Shown here: positions 5,098 through 49,908 of the stretch, piece after piece
Numbering within the stretch: the first letter of the stretch is position 1
Layout of the letters: each line of letters opens with the position of its first letter
Source of the DNA: Candidatus Aenigmatarchaeota archaeon
GTDB taxonomy: Archaea; Aenigmatarchaeota; Aenigmatarchaeia; QMZP01
Assembly: GCA_015520105.1 (NCBI GenBank)
Contig: WAQT01000010.1
Location: 1-57,004 of the forward strand
DNA: 57,004 bases
Direction of reading: 5' to 3'
Translations under genes and position numbers: made by a program
Notes under the pieces: model-generated
Database searches by the model: none
Told to the model about the DNA's origin: nothing
Seen by the model: the letters and a program-made list of their open reading frames with translations, nothing else

Positions 5098-5119
5098 AGT
5101 ACGCATCAAAGTTATACGT

Positions 5120-5423
5120 GCCCCCGTAGCTCAGCTGGATAGAGCACTGGCCTTCTATCCCATATCTCAGGATAGAAGATTCGAGGCCTTCCGGCCGGTG
5201 AGAGGAAAGCCAGGGGTCGTGGGTTCAAAACACAAGAAGGGGAACACATTTCCCCTTCTTAGTGTCGTATCATCCCCTTTAGTACAGGATAACAAGGCAA
5301 GGGTTAACCGATAGTGCAAATGGAGAGGGAACCAAAGTTCCTACTCTTGTATCGTCTATCATGTCACAGGATAACAGGCAACACCATTAACTGGGGATAT
5401 AGAGGGGAATCCCTCCGGGGGCA
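5120..5423 (+). tRNA. tRNA-Arg(UCU) with two introns (about 5158..5207 at 37/38; about 5230..5408 in the T-loop)
   Basis: Acceptor GCCCCCG/CGGGGGC+A. D-arm GCTC-AGCTGGATA-GAGC. Anticodon stem CTGGC/GCCAG with loop CT-TCT-A. T-arm GTGGG-TTCAAA[intron]AT-CCCTC, which implies one U-U mismatch at 50:64. Confidence 0.7.
5250..5333. repeat. Conserved T-loop-intron module (copy in tRNA-Arg)
   Basis: The core 5268..5333 (TATCATCCCCTTTAGTACAGGATAACAAGGCAAGGGTTAACCGATAGTGCAAATGGAGAGGGAACC) matches 26858..26924, differing by one substitution and one 1-nt indel. Confidence 0.85.
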
Positions 5424-5426
5424 CAT

Positions 5427-5707
5427 GGGACCGTGGTGTAGTGGCATCATTGGAGCATGGGGCAGAACCCTTTTACGGGAGGCTGCCGCCTTCCTCAAAA
5501 GCGTTCACGGAAAATGTAAAAGGGTTTTACGGAGCGCTTCAGACCTGGGTTCGATAGAACCCTTTTGGACAGGCAAGCGTCCAAAAGCGTTCACGGAAAG
5601 ACAGCTTCCGCGTAACAACGGGAGCTGACGCTTCCGAACCCTTTTGGACAGGCAAACATCAACGCTTTTGCGTGCCTCCAGAAGGAACGGAAATCCCAGC
5701 GGTCCCA
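5427..5707 (+). tRNA. tRNA-Pro(GGG) with two introns (5463..5534 at 37/38; about 5555..5692 in the T-loop)
   Basis: Acceptor GGGACCG/CGGTCCC+A. D-arm GTGT-AGTGGCA-TCAT. Anticodon stem GGAGC/GCTTC with loop AT-GGG-G. T-arm CTGGG-TTCGA[intron]AT-CCCAG. It starts 3 nt after tRNA-Arg. Confidence 0.7.
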
Positions 5708-7336
5708 TTATATCTTTTCAAGAATTTTCGCGACCCTTTCCCTGCCGGCCACGGTTATGAGGGAGGCCAGCCTTGGGCCTGAGGGCTTTCCCAGAAGAGC
5801 GAGGTATGCGGCCTCGAAGAACCTCTGCGGCCTGATGTTTCTCTTATTGGATATCTCGAAGAAGAGATTGTAAAGCTCCTTCTCGTTCCTGTCCTTCTCC
5901 ACGAGCTTTCCGGCAAGGTCTTTCAGGCATTCCATCTGCTCTGGGGAAAGTTTCTTTACTATTCCCGGGTCAGGGTTGTCTTTTATGCATATCCTGTACT
6001 GTTCCGGGGCGTACAGCCGCGCCCAGTTTCCTGCGAGTACGAGACGCCTCTCCACGCTTTCCCTGTCCTGCTTTGAGAGTTCTCCCTTTATGTGGCCAGT
6101 CCTCTTCAGTATGCCAACAGCCGATTCCAAGAGAGTGTCTCCGGGAACTATCTGGGATATCATTGCAGAAAACGTGTAGGGAATCCTGAGAGGAGGTTTC
6201 TTCGGTATTGTCCTGCTGGACATCTCGTACATCCTTTTCATGTTCCTCCTGTCCTTCTCGTTCCTCTCCTCCTCGAGGCCAAAAAACACCCTCTCAACCC
6301 TCTCGAACTCGTCAACGAGCAGGTGTACGTTCCTGAGGTCGAGGTCTCTCTGCTTTCCCGGTTTCTTCGTGTAGAAGTAGAGGAAAACCTCAGGCTCTAT
6401 TATTTTGAGAATGTCCTGAGTGATGTAGACGTTGCCCTGCGAGGCGCTCATCTTCTCGCCGTTCACGAGGAAGAACTCGTAGACATAGGGAACCGGCGGT
6501 TCTATCTCAAAGACCCTTCTCGCTATCTCCTGTCCGCTTTGCCATGAGCCTGCGTAGTGGTCCTTCCCGAAGGGCTCGAAGTTGGTTTCGAATATCTTCC
6601 ACTGGGCAGGCCACTCGAACCTCCACTGAAGCTTTCCCTGCCTGAAGGAGACCTCTCCTTTCCATCCGCAGCCCTCGCTTCTCTTCTTCTTTATCGCCTT
6701 TCCCCCGCACACGAAACTCACTGTTTTGCTTTCCAGATTGAAGCCGGAGACATTCGTCAGGACACCGCAGTTCGGGCATATCGCGTCGAAGGGTATGTAA
6801 TCCTTTCCCTTGGTCTTCTGGTACTTGCTTATAATCTCTCCTGCTGTCTCCGCCTTCCTGAACACCGTCTCTATGTGGGGGTCAAACGCTCCCTTCCTGT
6901 AAAGCTCGTCGTTGGAGAATCTCTCCGGCTTTATCCCGAGTTCGTGGAGGCCTGACACCCAGAGGTTGTCGAAGTGATGGGCGTAGCTCCTGCAGCAGCC
7001 GAACGGGTCGGGTATGTTGCAGAGGGGGTGGCCCGAGTATTTCCTCAGTTCCGGAAACTTTTCCGAGGGGAACCATTTTCCGTCAAGGTCAGCAAGCCTC
7101 GCGGGTATGTCCTTCAGTGGGTCCCTGTCGTCGCTGGTGTTCACGAACCTCGCCTTCGCTCCCTTCTCTGTGACAGCCTTATAGACAAAATAGGCCCTCA
7201 CAGGGTCGTTCAGGTTTCCTATGTGCTTCCCTCCGGAAGGGGTCTGGCCGCTTCTTATGGATACGATTTTCTTCTCCTTCCTTGCCCTTCTTATTACGGC
7301 GTCAGCGAGCTGGTCTGCCCAGAACAGGGATTCCAT
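5708..7336 (-). CDS. lysK: Lysyl-tRNA synthetase, class I
   Basis: 542 aa. It has the HIGN signature (GGKHIGNL), KMSASQG (KMSKS-like) and the archaeal class I LysRS layout. Confidence 0.85.
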   Translation of the reverse strand: MESLFWADQLADAVIRRARKEKKIVSIRSGQTPSGGKHIGNLNDPVRAYFVYKAVTEKGAKARFVNTSDDRDPLKDIPARLADLDGKWFPSEKFPELRKYSGHPLCNIPDPFGCCRSYAHHFDNLWVSGLHELGIKPERFSNDELYRKGAFDPHIETVFRKAETAGEIISKYQKTKGKDYIPFDAICPNCGVLTNVSGFNLESKTVSFVCGGKAIKKKRSEGCGWKGEVSFRQGKLQWRFEWPAQWKIFETNFEPFGKDHYAGSWQSGQEIARRVFEIEPPVPYVYEFFLVNGEKMSASQGNVYITQDILKIIEPEVFLYFYTKKPGKQRDLDLRNVHLLVDEFERVERVFFGLEEERNEKDRRNMKRMYEMSSRTIPKKPPLRIPYTFSAMISQIVPGDTLLESAVGILKRTGHIKGELSKQDRESVERRLVLAGNWARLYAPEQYRICIKDNPDPGIVKKLSPEQMECLKDLAGKLVEKDRNEKELYNLFFEISNKRNIRPQRFFEAAYLALLGKPSGPRLASLITVAGRERVAKILEKI

Positions 7337-8805: not shown

Positions 8806-9040
8806 GCCGGAAGCGTGAGCTCCTGTTGTGTTTACCTGCATGTTTTCCGTACACGCTTTGGCGGAAGCGGGTGCCTGCCTGGTCATAACCAACTACATTG
8901 CGGACCAGGATTGCTTTGTGAGCTCCCGTCTTTGTTTTCAAGGGGTTTGGGTCAACAGCCTTTGGAGCACCTTCTCCTGCTCCCAACAGAAGGTGCATCA
9001 AGAGGGAGCTGACCGCTTCCATCCTGCGGCAGCCTCGAAA
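8806..9040. repeat. Intergenic repeat island 1 (modules shared with tRNA introns and island 2)
   Basis: 8830..8859 resembles 12391..12419. 8968..9033 matches 12446..12510 at roughly 94%. 8994..9020 is the exact reverse complement of 26627..26653 inside tRNA-Glu intron 1. Confidence 0.85.
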
Positions 9041-12339: not shown

Positions 12340-12673
12340 AAGAGGCGGATTCGCGAGTTTCCGCTTCCATGTTGCGGAAGCATCCGTTACGTTTACCTGC
12401 ACGTTTTCCGTACACGCTTGTTTCCGTCAGGAAACTCCCTGCCGGCACCTTCTCCTGTTCCCAACAGAAGGTGCATCAAGAGGGAGCTATCGCTTCCATC
12501 CTGCGACAGCGTCTGTTGCGTTTACTTTGCGTATTTTCCGTACACGCTTGTTTCCGTCAGGAAACTCCCTGCCGTCAGGCAGAGGATTGCGGAAGTGTAA
12601 ACTCCCGTAAAAGGGTGTGCGGTAGCGGTGTTTCCGTGAACGCTTTAGCGCGCTTGCCTGCGCTAAAGGGTTC
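12340..12673. repeat. Intergenic repeat island 2 (internal 40-nt duplication plus modules shared with tRNA introns)
   Basis: 12404..12443 is identical to 12534..12573 (40 nt). 12446..12510 matches 8968..9033. 12631..12673 is an inverted copy of the tRNA-Pro intron unit at 5557..5599. Confidence 0.85.
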
Positions 12674-13978
12674 TTACCAGCACACGCCTTCAAAACCATC
12701 GACTTTCTTGGGGTCCAGCGCCCTCCTGCCCTCTATTATCACACTTCCCCTCATCGCGGAGAAATCATCGTCCGTGAGGTCCCTGAACTCCCTCCATTCG
12801 GTCACGACAAGGCAGGCATCCGCTCCCTTCAGGGCCTCTTTCGCGCTTTCTGCGTAGCCTATCTTCGGGAACGCTTTCCGGAAGTTGAACATTGCCTTCG
12901 GGTCGTAGGCGACCACGCCGGCTCCCTGCCGGATAAGTTCGCTCACTATGCGCAGCGCAGGGGATTCCCTGACGTCGTCTGTCTCGGGCTTGAACGCGAG
13001 TCCGAGGACAGCGATTCTCTTTCCCTTGAGGGAACCGATTCTTTTCTTAAGGAGGTCTATCATCCTGTAGGGCTGCCTTGAGTTCACGTTTATCACCTCC
13101 TTCAGAAGGGAGGCGTTGTAGCCGAGCTTCTCTGCCTTGCTCACGAGGGCGAGGACGTCCTTGGGGAAGCATGAGCCTCCAAACCCTATTCCGGCCCTGA
13201 GGAAGTGGGGAGATATCCTGCTGTCCAGACCGACGCCCTTCATAACTTCATAGGCGTCTATCCCGAGCTTCTTGCAGATGTTCCCTATCTCATTCGCATA
13301 GGTTATTTTCATTGCAAGGAATGAGTTTGAGGCGTACTTTATCATCTCCGCCACCTTTAGGGAAGTTCTCAACACAGGGGCCGCAAATCCCCTGTAGAGA
13401 AAGGCGAGCGTCTCTCCGGAACGCGGGTCAAGCTCTCCTATCACTATCCTGTCCGGGTTGAGGAAATCCTCGAGCGCGCTTCCCTCCCTGAGGAACTCTG
13501 GATTCATGCACACGCCGAAACCGGGACCCGCCTTCTTTCCTGAACCCTCCTCGAGGTTCGGAATCACCACCCTCTCAGTGGTTTCTGGCGGGACAGTGGA
13601 CTTGACCGCAACCACATGGTAATGCTCCTTCAGCCTCAGGGCCTTTCCTATTGCCTTTGAGGAATCCTCTATATACCTTAAATCAGTATCTCCGTTCCTC
13701 CTTGACGGCGTCGGGACGCATATGAAGGTTATCTCCGACTCCGAGACAGCGTAATCGAGATTCGTGGTCGCCTCTATATTTCCCTCTCTTCTCAGTTCCT
13801 TGAGCATTTCCCTCAGTCCAGGCTCGTATATCGGGCTCTCTCCGGAGTTTATCCTTTCCACCTTTTCCTTGTCTATGTCCATGAGTATGGTCTTGAATCC
13901 CTTCTTTGAGAAGCCGACTGCTGTGGTTAACCCGACATATCCTGCGCCTATCAGCGATATCCTTACCTGCTTCCTCAT
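12674..13978 (-). CDS. ugd: UDP-glucose 6-dehydrogenase
   Basis: 434 aa with N-terminal GAGYVGL Rossmann motif, catalytic GFGGSCFPKD, and a C-terminal UDP-binding domain. Confidence 0.8.
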   Translation of the reverse strand: MRKQVRISLIGAGYVGLTTAVGFSKKGFKTILMDIDKEKVERINSGESPIYEPGLREMLKELRREGNIEATTNLDYAVSESEITFICVPTPSRRNGDTDLRYIEDSSKAIGKALRLKEHYHVVAVKSTVPPETTERVVIPNLEEGSGKKAGPGFGVCMNPEFLREGSALEDFLNPDRIVIGELDPRSGETLAFLYRGFAAPVLRTSLKVAEMIKYASNSFLAMKITYANEIGNICKKLGIDAYEVMKGVGLDSRISPHFLRAGIGFGGSCFPKDVLALVSKAEKLGYNASLLKEVINVNSRQPYRMIDLLKKRIGSLKGKRIAVLGLAFKPETDDVRESPALRIVSELIRQGAGVVAYDPKAMFNFRKAFPKIGYAESAKEALKGADACLVVTEWREFRDLTDDDFSAMRGSVIIEGRRALDPKKVDGFEGVCW

Positions 13979-26452: not shown

Positions 26453-26961
26453 GCTCCCGTCGTCTAGCCCGGTCAAGGATACGAGCCTCTCGAATGAGCT
26501 TTTCTCAAGGAAAAAGCTCAACCAACAGGAGGCTTCCGCCTTCCAAGGGGGTTTTCCTCAAGGAAAAAGCTTTGCGGAACAAGCGTGTCACGACTCAGCT
26601 CCCTAAAATGGTTGGGAAGGTGCAAAGGAAGCGGTCAGCTCCCTCTTGATGCAAGAGGTTAACCTTTTGCGGAAGCGAGCGCGAGCGAAGCTCCTGTAAA
26701 AGGTTAGGGAGCAGGAGAAGGTGCAAAGGAGAAAGCTCGGGACGCGGGTTCAAAGCGCAAGAATGGGGACACATTCGTGCCTCGTCAATGAGGATTGTGG
26801 CACGAGACATCTCTGCAATGGTTATATTGGAGATGCAGATCCCCCTTCTTACCGCACTATCATCCCCTTTAATACAGGATAACAAGGCAAAGGGTTAACC
26901 GATAGTGCAAATGGAGAGGGAACCCAGGTTCCCCTCTGCGGTGGGAGTCCCGCCGGGAGCA
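26453..26961 (+). tRNA. tRNA-Glu(CUC) with two very long introns (26493..26733 at 37/38; about 26755..26947 in the T-loop)
   Basis: Acceptor GCTCCCG/CGGGAGC+A. Anticodon stem CGAGC/GCTCG with loop CT-CTC-G. T-arm GCGGG-TTCAAA[intron]T-CCCGC. Confidence 0.7.
26840..26924. repeat. Conserved T-loop-intron module (copy in tRNA-Glu)
   Basis: Near-identical to 5250..5333 in tRNA-Arg. Confidence 0.85.
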
Positions 26962-28421: not shown

Positions 28422-28629
28422 GGGCCCGTGGCTTAGTGGTTAGAGCGCCCGACTGATACAGGTTTCCCCTCGAACAGCAGCAGGGGCATGCCTGTGGATA
28501 TCGGGAGGTCGTGAGTTCGATACACCGCTTTTTACAGGAGCTTTCGTTTCCTCCAAAAGCGGTGGAGCAAAAACAGGCACAGTTAACCGATAATTCGGTT
28601 AACAGTGAACGAGAATCTCACCGGGCCCA
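28422..28629 (+). tRNA. tRNA-Ile(GAU) with two introns (28459..28499 at 37/38; 28521..28614 in the T-loop)
   Basis: Acceptor GGGCCCG/CGGGCCC+A. D-arm GCTT-AGTGGTTA-GAGC. Anticodon stem CCCGA/TCGGG with loop CT-GAT-A. T-arm GTGAG-TTCGA[intron]AT-CTCAC. Confidence 0.75.
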
Positions 28630-28813
28630 TTCTATCAAGAGGTTGGTTTGCTTAGCGTTTTCAGCATTCCATAAATGTCTGTGAACACAACATTGCAGTT
28701 ATTCAGGATTTGACTTCCTGCTTTTCTTTTATAGAACATAACCTTGAGATTTAGTTAATCGTTTAAATTTTAGTATAACTAAAGTTTAATCATAGTTTAA
28801 TAATAGTAATGAA

Positions 28814-28933
28814 TGGACCGACCGGGATTCGAACCCGGAGCCTCCGCCTGTTTCCGAACCTTGCGCTTCTGTTGAGGGAGTGTTGCCCGAAGGTTCTTGC
28901 GAAAGCGGCGATCTACCATTGATCTATCGGCCC
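28814..28933 (-). tRNA. tRNA-Ala(CGC) with one canonical intron of about 48 nt
   Basis: On the minus strand: acceptor GGGCCGA/TCGGTCC with a G3:U70 pair. Loop TT-CGC-A. T-arm CCGGG-TTCGAAT-CCCGG. No encoded CCA. Confidence 0.8.
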
Positions 28934-38777: not shown

Positions 38778-39716
38778 ATGGCAAGGGTTCTTGTCACAGG
38801 AGGCGCGGGGTTCATAGGCTCGAACATAGCTGAGGCCCTTCTGGAGAAGGGTTATGAGGTCAGGGTTCTTGACAACGAATCTACCGGAAACAGGAAGAAT
38901 CTCTCAGGCCTTGCGGGTCTGGAATTTCTCAGAGGCGACATAAAGGATATGGAAACCGTGAGCAAAGCCATGGAAGGCATTGATTTCGTGCTTCACCAGG
39001 CAGCGCTGCCCTCTGTGAGCAGGTCTGTGGAGAATCCTCTGGAGACCAACGGTGTTAACGTGGAGGGGAGCCTTAACGTTCTCGAGGCAGCGAGAAAGAG
39101 GGATGTTGAAAGGATAGTGTACGCCTCATCTTCTTCGGTTTATGGCGACACCGAGATTCTGCCCAAGAGGGAGGACATGGAGCCGAAACCCCTCTCTCCC
39201 TATGCGGCGAGCAAGGTCGCGATGGAATATTACTTCTCGGTGTTCAACAACGTTTACGGGATAAAGGCAATCGGCCTTCGATACTTCAACGTCTACGGCC
39301 CGAGGCAGAACCCTGAATCCGAGTACGCTGCTGTTGTTCCGAGGTTCATAAAGGCGGTTCTTTCCGGAGAGAGGCCTGTGATATACGGCGATGGAGAGCA
39401 GACAAGAGACTTCACTTATGTAAAGGACGTTGTTCAGGCAAACCTGCTTGCGATGAACGCGAAGGGAATCGGGCATGAGGTGTTCAACATAGCGAGGGGG
39501 GAAAGGATAAGCATAAACAGGCTGCTGGAGATGATATGCAATATCGCTGGAAGGGACGTCAGTCCGGAGCACAGGGAACCGAGGAAGGGAGACATAAGGG
39601 ATTCCCTTGCGGACATAAGCAAAGCCAAGGAGAGGATTGGATACTCTCCTGAATACGATATAGAGAAGGGGTTGAGGGAAACCGTTGACTGGTTCAGGGC
39701 GAGGACGGATGCTTGA
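38778..39716 (+). CDS. NAD-dependent UDP-sugar 4-epimerase (WbpP/TviC-like)
   Basis: TGGAGFIGSN, HQAALPSVSRSVENP, SSSSVYGD and YAASK motifs. Confidence 0.7.
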   Translation: MARVLVTGGAGFIGSNIAEALLEKGYEVRVLDNESTGNRKNLSGLAGLEFLRGDIKDMETVSKAMEGIDFVLHQAALPSVSRSVENPLETNGVNVEGSLNVLEAARKRDVERIVYASSSSVYGDTEILPKREDMEPKPLSPYAASKVAMEYYFSVFNNVYGIKAIGLRYFNVYGPRQNPESEYAAVVPRFIKAVLSGERPVIYGDGEQTRDFTYVKDVVQANLLAMNAKGIGHEVFNIARGERISINRLLEMICNIAGRDVSPEHREPRKGDIRDSLADISKAKERIGYSPEYDIEKGLRETVDWFRARTDA

Positions 39717-48993: not shown

Positions 48994-49908
48994 TCATTCG
49001 ATGTTCCTTATGTAATGCCTCGCGGCCTTTCTCACAGCCGCCTCGGAGTCAAGCTTTGGTTCCCATCCAAGGGATTTAAGCCGCGATGTGTCAAGAAGCA
49101 TTACCGGAACGTCTCCCTTCCATCCCCTGTCCCCGCCAGTGAAAGCGAATTCCGGGGCAACGTCCATCTCCTCGCACACTATCTCCGCTATCCTTTTCAC
49201 CTTTATCTGCGTTTCGGAACCGACGTTGAATATCTGAAATCCCTTTGTTTCGCGAAAGCCTGTGAGCATTCCGTTTATCGTGTCCTCCACATCAAGGTAT
49301 GACTTGTTCTGCTCGCCGTTTCCAAGAATCTCCAGACGATTGGGGTTTCTTTTCAGCTTCCTGACGAAGTCGAAGACCACGCCGTGATCTGAGCCTTCGC
49401 CTATTATGTTTGCGAGCCTGAATATCCACGCATTCATTCCGAATGTGTGGTGGTAGGAAGACAGGAGCGCCTCGCATGAGAGTTTTGACGCTCCGTATAC
49501 TGATATGGGCTGGAGGGGAGAGTAGTCTTCTGGTGTGGGGATGACTCTGGCCTCTCCGTAGACAGCGGAGGTGGACGTGAACACGATGTTCTTCGCTCCG
49601 GAAGAACGCATCGACTCAAGGAGGCGGAACGTGGCGAGTATGTTCTGATTGATGTCCCTTTCCGGACTCTTCTCTCCCGACCTTATGTCCCTGTTCGCAG
49701 CAAGATGGAACACGGTTTCCACTCCGTCGAGCAGGTTGGAAAGATTATCTGTCAGAAGGTCTGCCCTGACAAATTCTATGTTTTCGTGTTTGAGAGGATT
49801 GTTTCCGGACGAGAGGTTGTCGACCACTCTAACGCGGTGCCCCTCGCCCGCAAGCCTTTCTGCCAGATGGGAGCCTATGAATCCCGCGCCTCCTGTGACA
49901 AGCATCAT
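48994..49908 (-). CDS. NAD-dependent epimerase/dehydratase (SDR)
   Basis: LVTGGAGFIGSHL, TSTSAVYG and YGASK motifs. Confidence 0.7.
   Translation of the reverse strand: MMLVTGGAGFIGSHLAERLAGEGHRVRVVDNLSSGNNPLKHENIEFVRADLLTDNLSNLLDGVETVFHLAANRDIRSGEKSPERDINQNILATFRLLESMRSSGAKNIVFTSTSAVYGEARVIPTPEDYSPLQPISVYGASKLSCEALLSSYHHTFGMNAWIFRLANIIGEGSDHGVVFDFVRKLKRNPNRLEILGNGEQNKSYLDVEDTINGMLTGFRETKGFQIFNVGSETQIKVKRIAEIVCEEMDVAPEFAFTGGDRGWKGDVPVMLLDTSRLKSLGWEPKLDSEAAVRKAARHYIRNIE

Follow-up and report, generated by a model that had tools for sequence, protein, structure and literature searches.

Why would one short hairpin unit, with its stem rewritten and its pairing intact, sit both inside an intron of a tRNA gene and directly behind a protein-coding gene of the same archaeon? 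The question is raised by contig WAQT01000010.1 of Candidatus Aenigmatarchaeota archaeon (assembly GCA_015520105.1), the whole 57,004-nt stretch of which is referred to below as the window. A preliminary description had pointed out two such units, at 5557-5599 (plus strand) in tRNA-Pro intron 2 and at 12631-12673 (minus strand) behind ugd, and proposed that selection acts on their RNA or DNA structure. We report that these units belong to a family of short elements whose core folds into one long hairpin with pairing maintained by compensatory change, and which are inserted at many different positions of tRNA, 5S, 16S, and 23S rRNA genes. The elements probably represent mobile introns.

Within the window, the pattern GAACCCTTT-N4-CAGGCAAGCG-N4-AAAGCGTTCACGGAAA has exactly two matches, 5557-5599(+) and 12631-12673(-), and zero matches were obtained across 100 dinucleotide shuffles. 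The two units differ solely by TGGA/TCCA versus AGCG/CGCT, i.e., by four compensated stem pairs, just as first noticed. The pairing of the reported 8-bp stem is real, but the hairpin is longer: the inner stem has 9 bp (CUUUUGGAC/GUCCAAAAG), and beyond a C.C mismatch comes a second, outer helix of 4 bp (GAAC/GUUC). The ACGGAAA tail 3' of the hairpin is single-stranded. The third variant indeed has the same flanks and a different hairpin; its GAACC starts at 5465 rather than 5464, and its tail extends to 5513. The 20-nt exact direct repeat (5557-5576 = 5636-5655), at first taken for a truncated copy, is the beginning of a diverged full copy (5636-5693), which has GAAC and possesses both a hairpin (CCUUUUGG/CCAGAAGG) and an ACGGAAA tail of its own. 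All units of the window adopt the proposed hairpin fold, with z of approximately -3.6 against shuffles.

Core structure and distribution of the family

The element core, about 45 nt long, has the form N-GAAC-C-CUUU(U)-(any stem-loop)-(A)AAAG-C-GUUC-A-CGGAAA(A). It comprises a covarying 4-bp helix P1 (GAAC/GUUC), an invariant C.C mismatch within CCC/GCG, an invariant CUUU/AAAG helix, a sequence-free stem-loop in which pairing is kept, and an invariant CGGAAA tail. Almost all of the 111 distinct hairpin inserts extend the CUUU/AAAG stem, far above shuffled controls; beyond this, the loop and the distal stem vary freely in sequence and in length, from 8 to ~48 nt. In the subfamily represented in the window, the loop C-AGGCAAGC-G is constant and the stem occurs as UGGA, AGCG, GGCA, or UGCG together with the matching complement.

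Pairing in P1 was assessed in 38 copies that had not been ascertained on P1; the helix is fully paired (4/4) in 23 of them, compared with 4.9 expected with shuffled partners. The variants GCAC/GUGC, UGAC/GUCA, ACAC/GUGU, CAAC/GUUG, AAAC/GUUU, UAAC/GUUA, GGGC/GCCC, CAGC/GCUG, and CGGC/GCCG were observed. For the covariation test, 88 copies were aligned in a fixed register with the hairpin tips swapped for a spacer, leaving no alignment freedom that could favour pairing. The covariation score of 0.244 was reached by none of 500 shuffles (0.090 +/- 0.009), and slid registers scored 0.02-0.08. Cells changed on both sides numbered 136 versus 61 in shuffles, and the two outer P1 pairs had 14 and 11 double changes with zero single changes. 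Both checks proposed in the preliminary description, covariation among collected copies and fold energy against shuffled controls, were positive, and selection on nucleic-acid structure is now strongly supported by ~150 copies with compensated double substitutions in the variable stem and in the outer helix alike. The invariant core implies a protein or RNA partner. Inspection by eye led us to reject a kink-turn (K-turn), a C/D box, an H/ACA element, and a T-arm mimic: tandem G.A pairs and boxes are absent, and GUUC is paired.

The family was collected by scanning one genome per prokaryotic species with the pattern AACCCTTT-N(8-38)-AAAGCGTTCACGG, which identified at least 114 loci versus ~8 expected by chance according to our own estimate. 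Among the matches listed, about 80 assemblies deposited by many independent groups are represented, and nearly all are metagenome-assembled genomes (MAGs) of DPANN (Micr-, Aenigmat-, Alti-, Nano-, Parv-, and Woesearchaeota) or Thermoplasmatota. Two matches in Flavobacteriales lack the CGGAAA tail and look like chance. A relaxed search added 64 copies, their variation being concentrated in GUUC of the core. In total, ~150 short non-coding copies of 40-90 nt were found in 850 kb of fetched DNA; individual loci are cited below by handle (e.g., L017). A metagenome scan for the loop subfamily of the window yielded three true members, L119 (in 16S rRNA), L124, and L127 (the same as L098), the others being chance matches.

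The family was previously unrecognised. It has no match in Rfam, in the papers searched, or among viral contigs. Rfam 15 contained no family for the element when the whole window was searched at the gathering threshold, and only spurious weak matches arose in the region 5100-5720 at E up to 10. Full-text literature was searched both with the sequence, spelled as DNA and as RNA, and by topic, and no description of the motif was retrieved, figures being unsearchable and a prior depiction hence possible. A scan of viral contigs returned 0 matches, and the element is not obviously virus-borne.

That the window holds three strong copies only, two of them in one gene, could suggest chance similarity or a purely local product of duplication or gene conversion. 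The absence of shuffle matches and the number of loci among the matches listed already refute this explanation, to which we assign a negligible probability. What had been described as a local repeat of one genome is a cross-phylum family, and the flanks are its conserved part.

Host genes and splice-site geometry

As previously described, the unit at 5557-5599 resides in intron 2 of tRNA-Pro: joining the three exons listed in the table gives a 71-nt tRNA-Pro(GGG) recognised by ARAGORN. The removal of both introns thus restores a normal stable RNA, as expected for introns of the bulge-helix-bulge (BHB) type. In the RNAfold model of intron 2, the T stem serves as helix h, while UUCG (5550-5553) and CGGA (5688-5691) form the central helix H between the 3-nt bulges AUA, with the junction after AU, and AAU, with the junction after AA; a three-hairpin junction stands where the single h' helix would be. 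The tail CGGA-AA of copy D provides the intron side of helix H, pairing with the T-loop UUCG, and the 3' bulge; this copy ends exactly at the 3' splice site, which it supplies. The hairpin of copy B begins directly after the 5' bulge. Intron 1, in which copy A begins 2 nt from the 5' end, has a BHB-like spacing with AGAACCCUUUUAC/GUAAAAGGGUUUU as h'. In such folds, the modelled exon-intron junctions lie in two 3-nt bulges flanking a 4-bp helix, which is the substrate geometry of the archaeal splicing endonuclease, and the element-bearing introns should be substrates of the cell's tRNA-splicing enzyme.

Sequences of the element would build the intron side of the BHB motif by three modes. In the first, CCCUUUU forms h' with a downstream AAAAGGG(UU); anticodon-loop introns use AACCCUUUU and AAAAGGGUU for this helix, and the next 4 nt are complementary to the exon. 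In the second, which applies to minimal T-loop introns of 44 nt (L027, L093), CCUUUUCCG is paired with the CGGAAAAGG tail and CGAA with the T-loop UUCG. The third is that of the CGGA-AA tail in intron 2 of the window, described above. The h' pairing also has compensated variants, AACACC/GGUGUU in L110 and CACCCUUUUACGG/CCGUAAAGGGUG in L087. Since compensated variants are present in both the hairpin and the h' pairings, CCCUUUU has two mutually exclusive, conserved partners.

A crude search for strict helix-bulge-helix-bulge-helix (hBHBh') motifs, with the 5' site placed at the element start and displaced sites as controls, detected motifs scoring >=11 at 10/119 copies versus 2/468 controls. 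Strict BHB motifs were found in L025, L027, L035, L053, L093, L114, and others, and splicing at predicted sites gives ARAGORN-positive tRNAs in L035, L053 (Glu), L077 (Pro), L084 (Ala), and L114 (Asn). The earlier proposal of an endonuclease recognition element fits the position of the element at BHB splice motifs, which it helps to build; cleavage by the enzyme is predicted from modelled folds.

The range of host positions is wide. Copies occupy D, anticodon, variable, and T loops of many tRNAs, follow tRNA 3' ends, and occur in spacers and tandem arrays. Rfam places further copies within genes for 5S rRNA (L038, L087), 16S rRNA (L070, three times, and L063), and 23S rRNA (L072), all in the sense orientation, and flanking sequence identifies another 16S copy in L119. 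The element-bearing rRNA genes exceed the length of the Rfam models, e.g., 177 and 182 nt for the 5S genes of L038 and L087 versus a 120-nt model.

Long 5S genes of 162-182 nt were observed at L038 5719-5895 (-), L087 2829-3010 (-), and L011 234-395 (+). Those of L038 and L087 carry a ~60-nt element-bearing insert between CCCAU and UCGAACACGG, and the L087 gene forms a textbook BHB, with H = UCCC/GGGG and h' = CACCC.../...GGGUG. We know of no reported archaeal 5S rRNA introns, and element-bearing ones would be unusual in themselves.

Copies antisense to a tRNA were found in L091 and, beside a C/D-box-like sequence, in L005, L008, L011, and L064. In the latter four loci, TTCTGTCATCG runs directly into GAACCC, and the antisense element adjoins the reverse complement of GATGACAGAA (C-box-like) near the tRNA 3' half; judging from this sequence context, the element is probably nested in a tRNA intron with a C/D-box small RNA (sRNA). 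Three Thermoplasmata loci (L071, L057, L061) share a conserved, apparently structured non-tRNA context with no Rfam annotation, in which CCCGAAAAGGTTTCATGG directly precedes GAACCC and GGGCAGGTTCGGGG follows further on.

Insertion and decay of copies

Elements of 36-51 nt with 100% identity were found at different tRNA positions; L025 and L107 belong to a single MAG, and the sets L034/L049/L085, L018/L042, and L057/L061 each span more than one. The same intron sequence is thus present in different tRNA species or positions, as in transposed tRNA introns. Some copies are flanked by direct duplications, measured at 14, 17, 23, and ~38 bp. In L017 (912-1003), a 45-nt core in a promoter-like spacer is exactly bounded by two perfect 23-bp direct repeats (CCCGTCCCACAGAAACTTTAAAT), an arrangement that resembles the footprint of an insertion whose target duplication is unusually long. 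A 14-bp direct duplication flanks the element in L024; the 17-bp duplication in L046 includes the first 15 nt of the tRNA, with the intact gene after it, and is duplicated again in L043; in L091, ~38 bp of the tRNA 3' part are duplicated and the element is antisense. These identical copies in different host genes, some with flanking direct duplications, fit the transposition role suggested in the preliminary description.

In L046 (- strand, 230-340) and L043 (5560-5760), the first 15 nt of the tRNA, the element, and a 12-nt segment antisense to that tRNA's 5' end precede the intact gene as a duplication, which L043 contains twice. This antisense "adaptor" suggests that insertion may copy the target flank in inverted orientation. 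An assignment of L017 to a clustered regularly interspaced short palindromic repeat (CRISPR) spacer or array was rejected: only two 23-nt repeats are present, Tandem Repeats Finder (TRF) reports no array, and tandem copies elsewhere have identical "spacers".

We consider it probable that the elements constitute a widespread family of hairpin-cored mobile mini-introns of DPANN and Thermoplasmatota, lacking open reading frames (ORFs) and tolerated because the splicing endonuclease removes them. New copies would be generated as DNA and could enter in both orientations, in some cases duplicating a long stretch of the target. Those in essential stable-RNA genes would survive only in an orientation and register removable by the endonuclease EndA and the ligase RtcB; those in spacers, e.g., 12630-12673 behind ugd, would be neutral and decay. 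The invariant core (CCC/GCG with C.C, CUUU/AAAG, and CGGAAA) would be constrained by the element-copying machinery. Micrarchaeota live on Thermoplasmatales. The joint range of the family in DPANN and Thermoplasmatota fits transfer between symbionts and hosts.

Movement could instead have proceeded through RNA, with the excised and possibly circular intron re-inserted at BHB-like sites by EndA/RtcB reversal or mis-ligation and then fixed by reverse transcription and recombination. The strong sense bias in stable-RNA genes, insertion sites with BHB geometry beside stems, and copies directly after tRNA 3' ends (L069, L027) agree with such a route, as do the duplicated tRNA pieces flanking copies in L043, L046, and L091; variable-length duplications are typical of cDNA-mediated insertion. 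It accounts poorly for the copies antisense to their host tRNA (L005, L008, L011, L064, L091), for the 23-bp duplication of L017 in a promoter-like spacer that is not an RNA gene, and for the window copy behind ugd, which lacks a BHB. The element has no linked reverse transcriptase, an enzyme that many DPANN genomes are not known to encode. On balance we regard this route as improbable.

A second alternative is that the hairpin is not selfish but has a function as an RNA module, i.e., as a protein- or RNA-binding domain of introns and untranslated regions read by a conserved cellular factor. Examples would be a small RNA that derives from the intron and is stable or circular, a platform on which pre-tRNA and pre-rRNA are processed or chaperoned, and a two-state switch between the hairpin and a BHB-competent h' pairing. 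Core bases that are invariant across phyla while the helices covary are in line with this view, as are the retention of the window subfamily loop when its stem changes freely, the compensated variants of both CCCUUUU pairings (L110, L087), and the nearly uniform sense orientation in stable-RNA genes. A functional module would be less expected to leave its loop and distal stem so free in sequence and length, to occupy dozens of unrelated positions along with spacers, tandem arrays, and antisense sites, or to decay visibly in many copies; identical copies in different genes and target duplications at their flanks are not among its predictions, and no Rfam family matches the element. We therefore judge it rather unlikely, with a higher probability than the RNA-level route.

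Several observations weigh against the interpretation as mobile mini-introns. The extreme cross-phylum conservation of the core could reflect a cellular function. Strict BHB motifs were detected, by the crude search, in a minority of copies only, and many copies fit relaxed motifs only; this includes intron 1 of the window, whose central helix is weak (AUGG/ACGG, 2/4 pairs). A new insertion would need to acquire 4 nt that pair with its particular 5' exon, which the interpretation does not explain. Flanking duplications accompany just 5 of ~150 copies and vary from 14 to 38 bp, and we know of no transposase family that makes duplications of varying length. No transposase, reverse transcriptase, or homing endonuclease was found linked to the element, and the fetched loci, which were selected for short copies, contained no long ORF-bearing member and no 5' and 3' ends more than 75 nt apart. 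Mispairs of the G.U and A.C types are equally frequent (46 versus 52) and the antisense hairpin has the higher computed stability, so that the selected hairpin may be RNA or DNA, on either strand. Finally, the taxonomic range among the matches listed is a lower bound, which limits inference about other taxa.

A bolder form of the mobile mini-intron interpretation can be offered tentatively. The element may be an "introner" of Archaea: a hairpin cassette, mobile as DNA and probably passed horizontally between DPANN symbionts and Thermoplasmatota, which carries its own half of a BHB, is erased from any stable RNA by the protein-only splicing machinery of the host, and is the agent of extreme tRNA disruption and of the 5S, 16S, and 23S introns in these lineages. 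If so, the duplication-flanked copies would be the first snapshots of BHB intron gain.

The spacers of the window hold decaying element copies. Behind ugd, whose ORF (12674-13978, minus strand) is intact with a complete Pfam C-terminal domain, a 388-nt spacer is pieced together from degenerate copies and a 130-nt tandem unit, with copy C at its head. No BHB partner was identified for copy C, a strict-geometry search giving a low-scoring BHB solution only. In degenerate copy E, the covariance model matches the 3' part alone (11.7 bits), the rest having been read from the sequence and from a fuzzy core match. The preliminary description was correct that the unit starts right after the ugd stop codon, and took it for a possible 3'-end element. 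A terminator or stabiliser of the ugd mRNA, with the intron copies as unrelated by-products, would suit a stable hairpin that starts on the base after the stop codon on the transcribed strand. The hairpin is followed by no U-tract, the next 388 nt contain further degenerate copies, and the ~150 other copies lie in stable-RNA genes or spacers and not at mRNA 3' ends, which makes this role very improbable.

The 130-nt tandem unit of the ugd-DUF498 spacer (12362-12577) is made of element-derived modules, which recur at 8813-9036 and 26627-26653. One extra tandem unit is present in L002 (2800-3089), an NCBI MAG contig of the same species, and the contigs of both other assemblies terminate within this spacer region.

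Features of the tRNA-Pro gene and element copies in the window
Feature	Position	Strand	Basis and remarks
tRNA-Pro exon 1, positions 1-37	5427..5462	+	spliced product in ARAGORN
tRNA-Pro intron 1, 72 nt, canonical position 37/38	5463..5534	+	sequence; RNAfold of anticodon arm and intron; spliced product
tRNA-Pro exon 2, positions 38-59	5535..5555	+	spliced product
tRNA-Pro intron 2, 138 nt, T loop 59/60	5556..5693	+	RNAfold of T arm and intron; spliced product
tRNA-Pro exon 3, positions 60-73	5694..5707	+	spliced product
Element copy A	5465..5514	+	canonical flanks, distal hairpin GGGAGG..CCUUCC; covariance model 44.5 bits, E = 2.4e-8; fold z = -3.65
Element copy B (unit first noticed)	5557..5600	+	1 base past 5' splice site; 46.8 bits, E = 7e-9; z = -3.59
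Element copy D, diverged full copy	5636..5693	+	GAAC, own hairpin and ACGGAAA tail
Element copy C, free-standing	12630..12673	-	first base after ugd stop codon; 45.0 bits; 4+4 compensated stem positions versus copy B
Degenerate expanded copy E	12534..12618	-	P1 ACAC/GUGU; C..C mismatch retained; CUUUU/AAG helix eroded; ACGGAAAA tail intact
Partial copy, 3' half only (AAGCGUGUACGGAAAA)	12404..12421	-	11.7 bits, E = 0.8; duplicated together with 130-nt tandem unit
Degenerate copy GCACCC..GCGUGUACGGAAAA	8843..8874	-	spacer upstream of scpA; model 21 bits, E = 0.006

The window DNA is also present in GCA_027054295.1 and in one ENA metagenome, and its flanking genes are housekeeping ones (class I LysRS, ScpA/B, AspRS). 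The best named LysRS homologues belong to Aenigmarchaeota (61% identity), and several proteins are 64-78% identical to those of one DPANN-like MAG. An empty site was sought via LysRS neighbours; relatives (<=63% identity) have another gene after lysS and no tRNA cluster. A 32-nt inverted repeat (38790-38821 / 49871-49902, 97% identity) is unrelated to the element.

The region 5120-5707 contains two heavily interrupted tRNA genes. ARAGORN found no tRNA in the unspliced window despite at least five tRNA genes, and Rfam at the gathering threshold recovered one only, at 28814-28933. Besides tRNA-Pro, four tRNA genes were recognised, at 5120-5423, 26453-26960, 28432-28640 (+), and 28814-28933 (-), three of them with very long introns. 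With splice sites assigned by eye, one is probably tRNA-Arg(UCU), with a ~50-nt intron at 37/38 and a ~180-nt T-loop intron; another reads as tRNA-Glu(CUC), with introns of ~230 and ~180 nt, and a third as tRNA-Ile(GAU). A 90-nt module with 90% identity (5252-5341 / 26842-26932) is common to the T-loop introns of two different tRNAs; having no CGGAAA-type core, it appears to represent a second family of shared intron sequence. The T-loop intron of tRNA-Ile carries a related hairpin, CACCGCUUUU...AAAAGCGGUG, at 28560-28600 (+), in which both "mismatched" core C's have G partners and the ACGGAAA tail is absent, making it a possible sister family.

Relation to known systems

How BHB introns are gained in Archaea is an open question. 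A searchable signature, identical copies in different genes, and duplication-flanked copies together make the mechanism of gain directly testable. The family may also help to explain the difficulty of predicting DPANN tRNA sets, and annotating tRNA and rRNA genes in hundreds of MAGs could benefit from a covariance model of its core. The partner of the invariant core is worth finding.

Miniature inverted-repeat transposable elements (MITEs), repetitive extragenic palindromes (REPs), and insertion sequences (ISs) of the IS200/IS605 type resemble the element as short, non-coding, multi-copy hairpins with covarying stems and conserved feet in intergenic spacers. In contrast to those hairpins, most element copies are in the sense orientation within stable-RNA genes at splice-competent sites. 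MITEs have fixed-length target duplications and IS200/IS605 elements have none, whereas those of the element are long and variable, and no partner transposase was found in the fetched loci. The element is as short, non-coding, and multi-copy as a MITE but lacks the combination of terminal inverted repeats and a fixed-length duplication: full introns have GAACCCUUUU...AAAAGGGUU(C), which the duplication-bounded 45-nt unit of L017 does not. The observed duplications argue against an IS200/IS605-derived or REP-type identity.

The C/D-box sRNA introns of euryarchaeal tRNA-Trp are likewise conserved structured RNAs in a BHB intron, and are released, often as circles. The element differs in having no C/D boxes and no K-turn and in not being tied to one tRNA or position.

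Eukaryotic introners, reportedly treated by Huff and colleagues in 2016 and by Gozashti and colleagues in 2022, are said to be transposon-derived multi-copy spliceosomal introns. Introners and the element, if mobile as proposed, are alike as multi-copy non-coding mobile DNA tolerated in genes owing to signals that the insert itself supplies or generates for the splicing machinery of the host, with near-identical copies in unrelated genes. Unlike introners, the element would depend on the protein-only EndA/RtcB pathway acting on a BHB fold instead of the spliceosome, it resides in stable RNAs and not in mRNAs, and its target duplications do not create splice sites.

The closest parallels lie within Archaea. 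In DPANN, the possession of endonucleases with extra loops is correlated with tRNA gene disruption (PMC5829648), and intron transposition is known for tRNA genes of Thermoproteales (Fujishima et al., 2010, as summarised in PMC4033280). As far as that summary goes, the transposed BHB introns of Thermoproteales are, like the element, short and ORF-less, have similar sequences in different tRNAs and non-canonical positions, and are removed by a broad-specificity endonuclease. Compared by description and not by sequence, the element is distinguished by its occurrence in DPANN and Thermoplasmatota, by one core with invariant sequence and covarying helices across phyla, by copies in spacers and in the genes for 5S, 16S, and 23S rRNA, and by flanking target duplications at some sites. 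Within the known kind of mobile BHB introns, the notable features of the element are a defined conserved core, residence in tRNA as well as 5S, 16S, and 23S rRNA genes, and insertion footprints.

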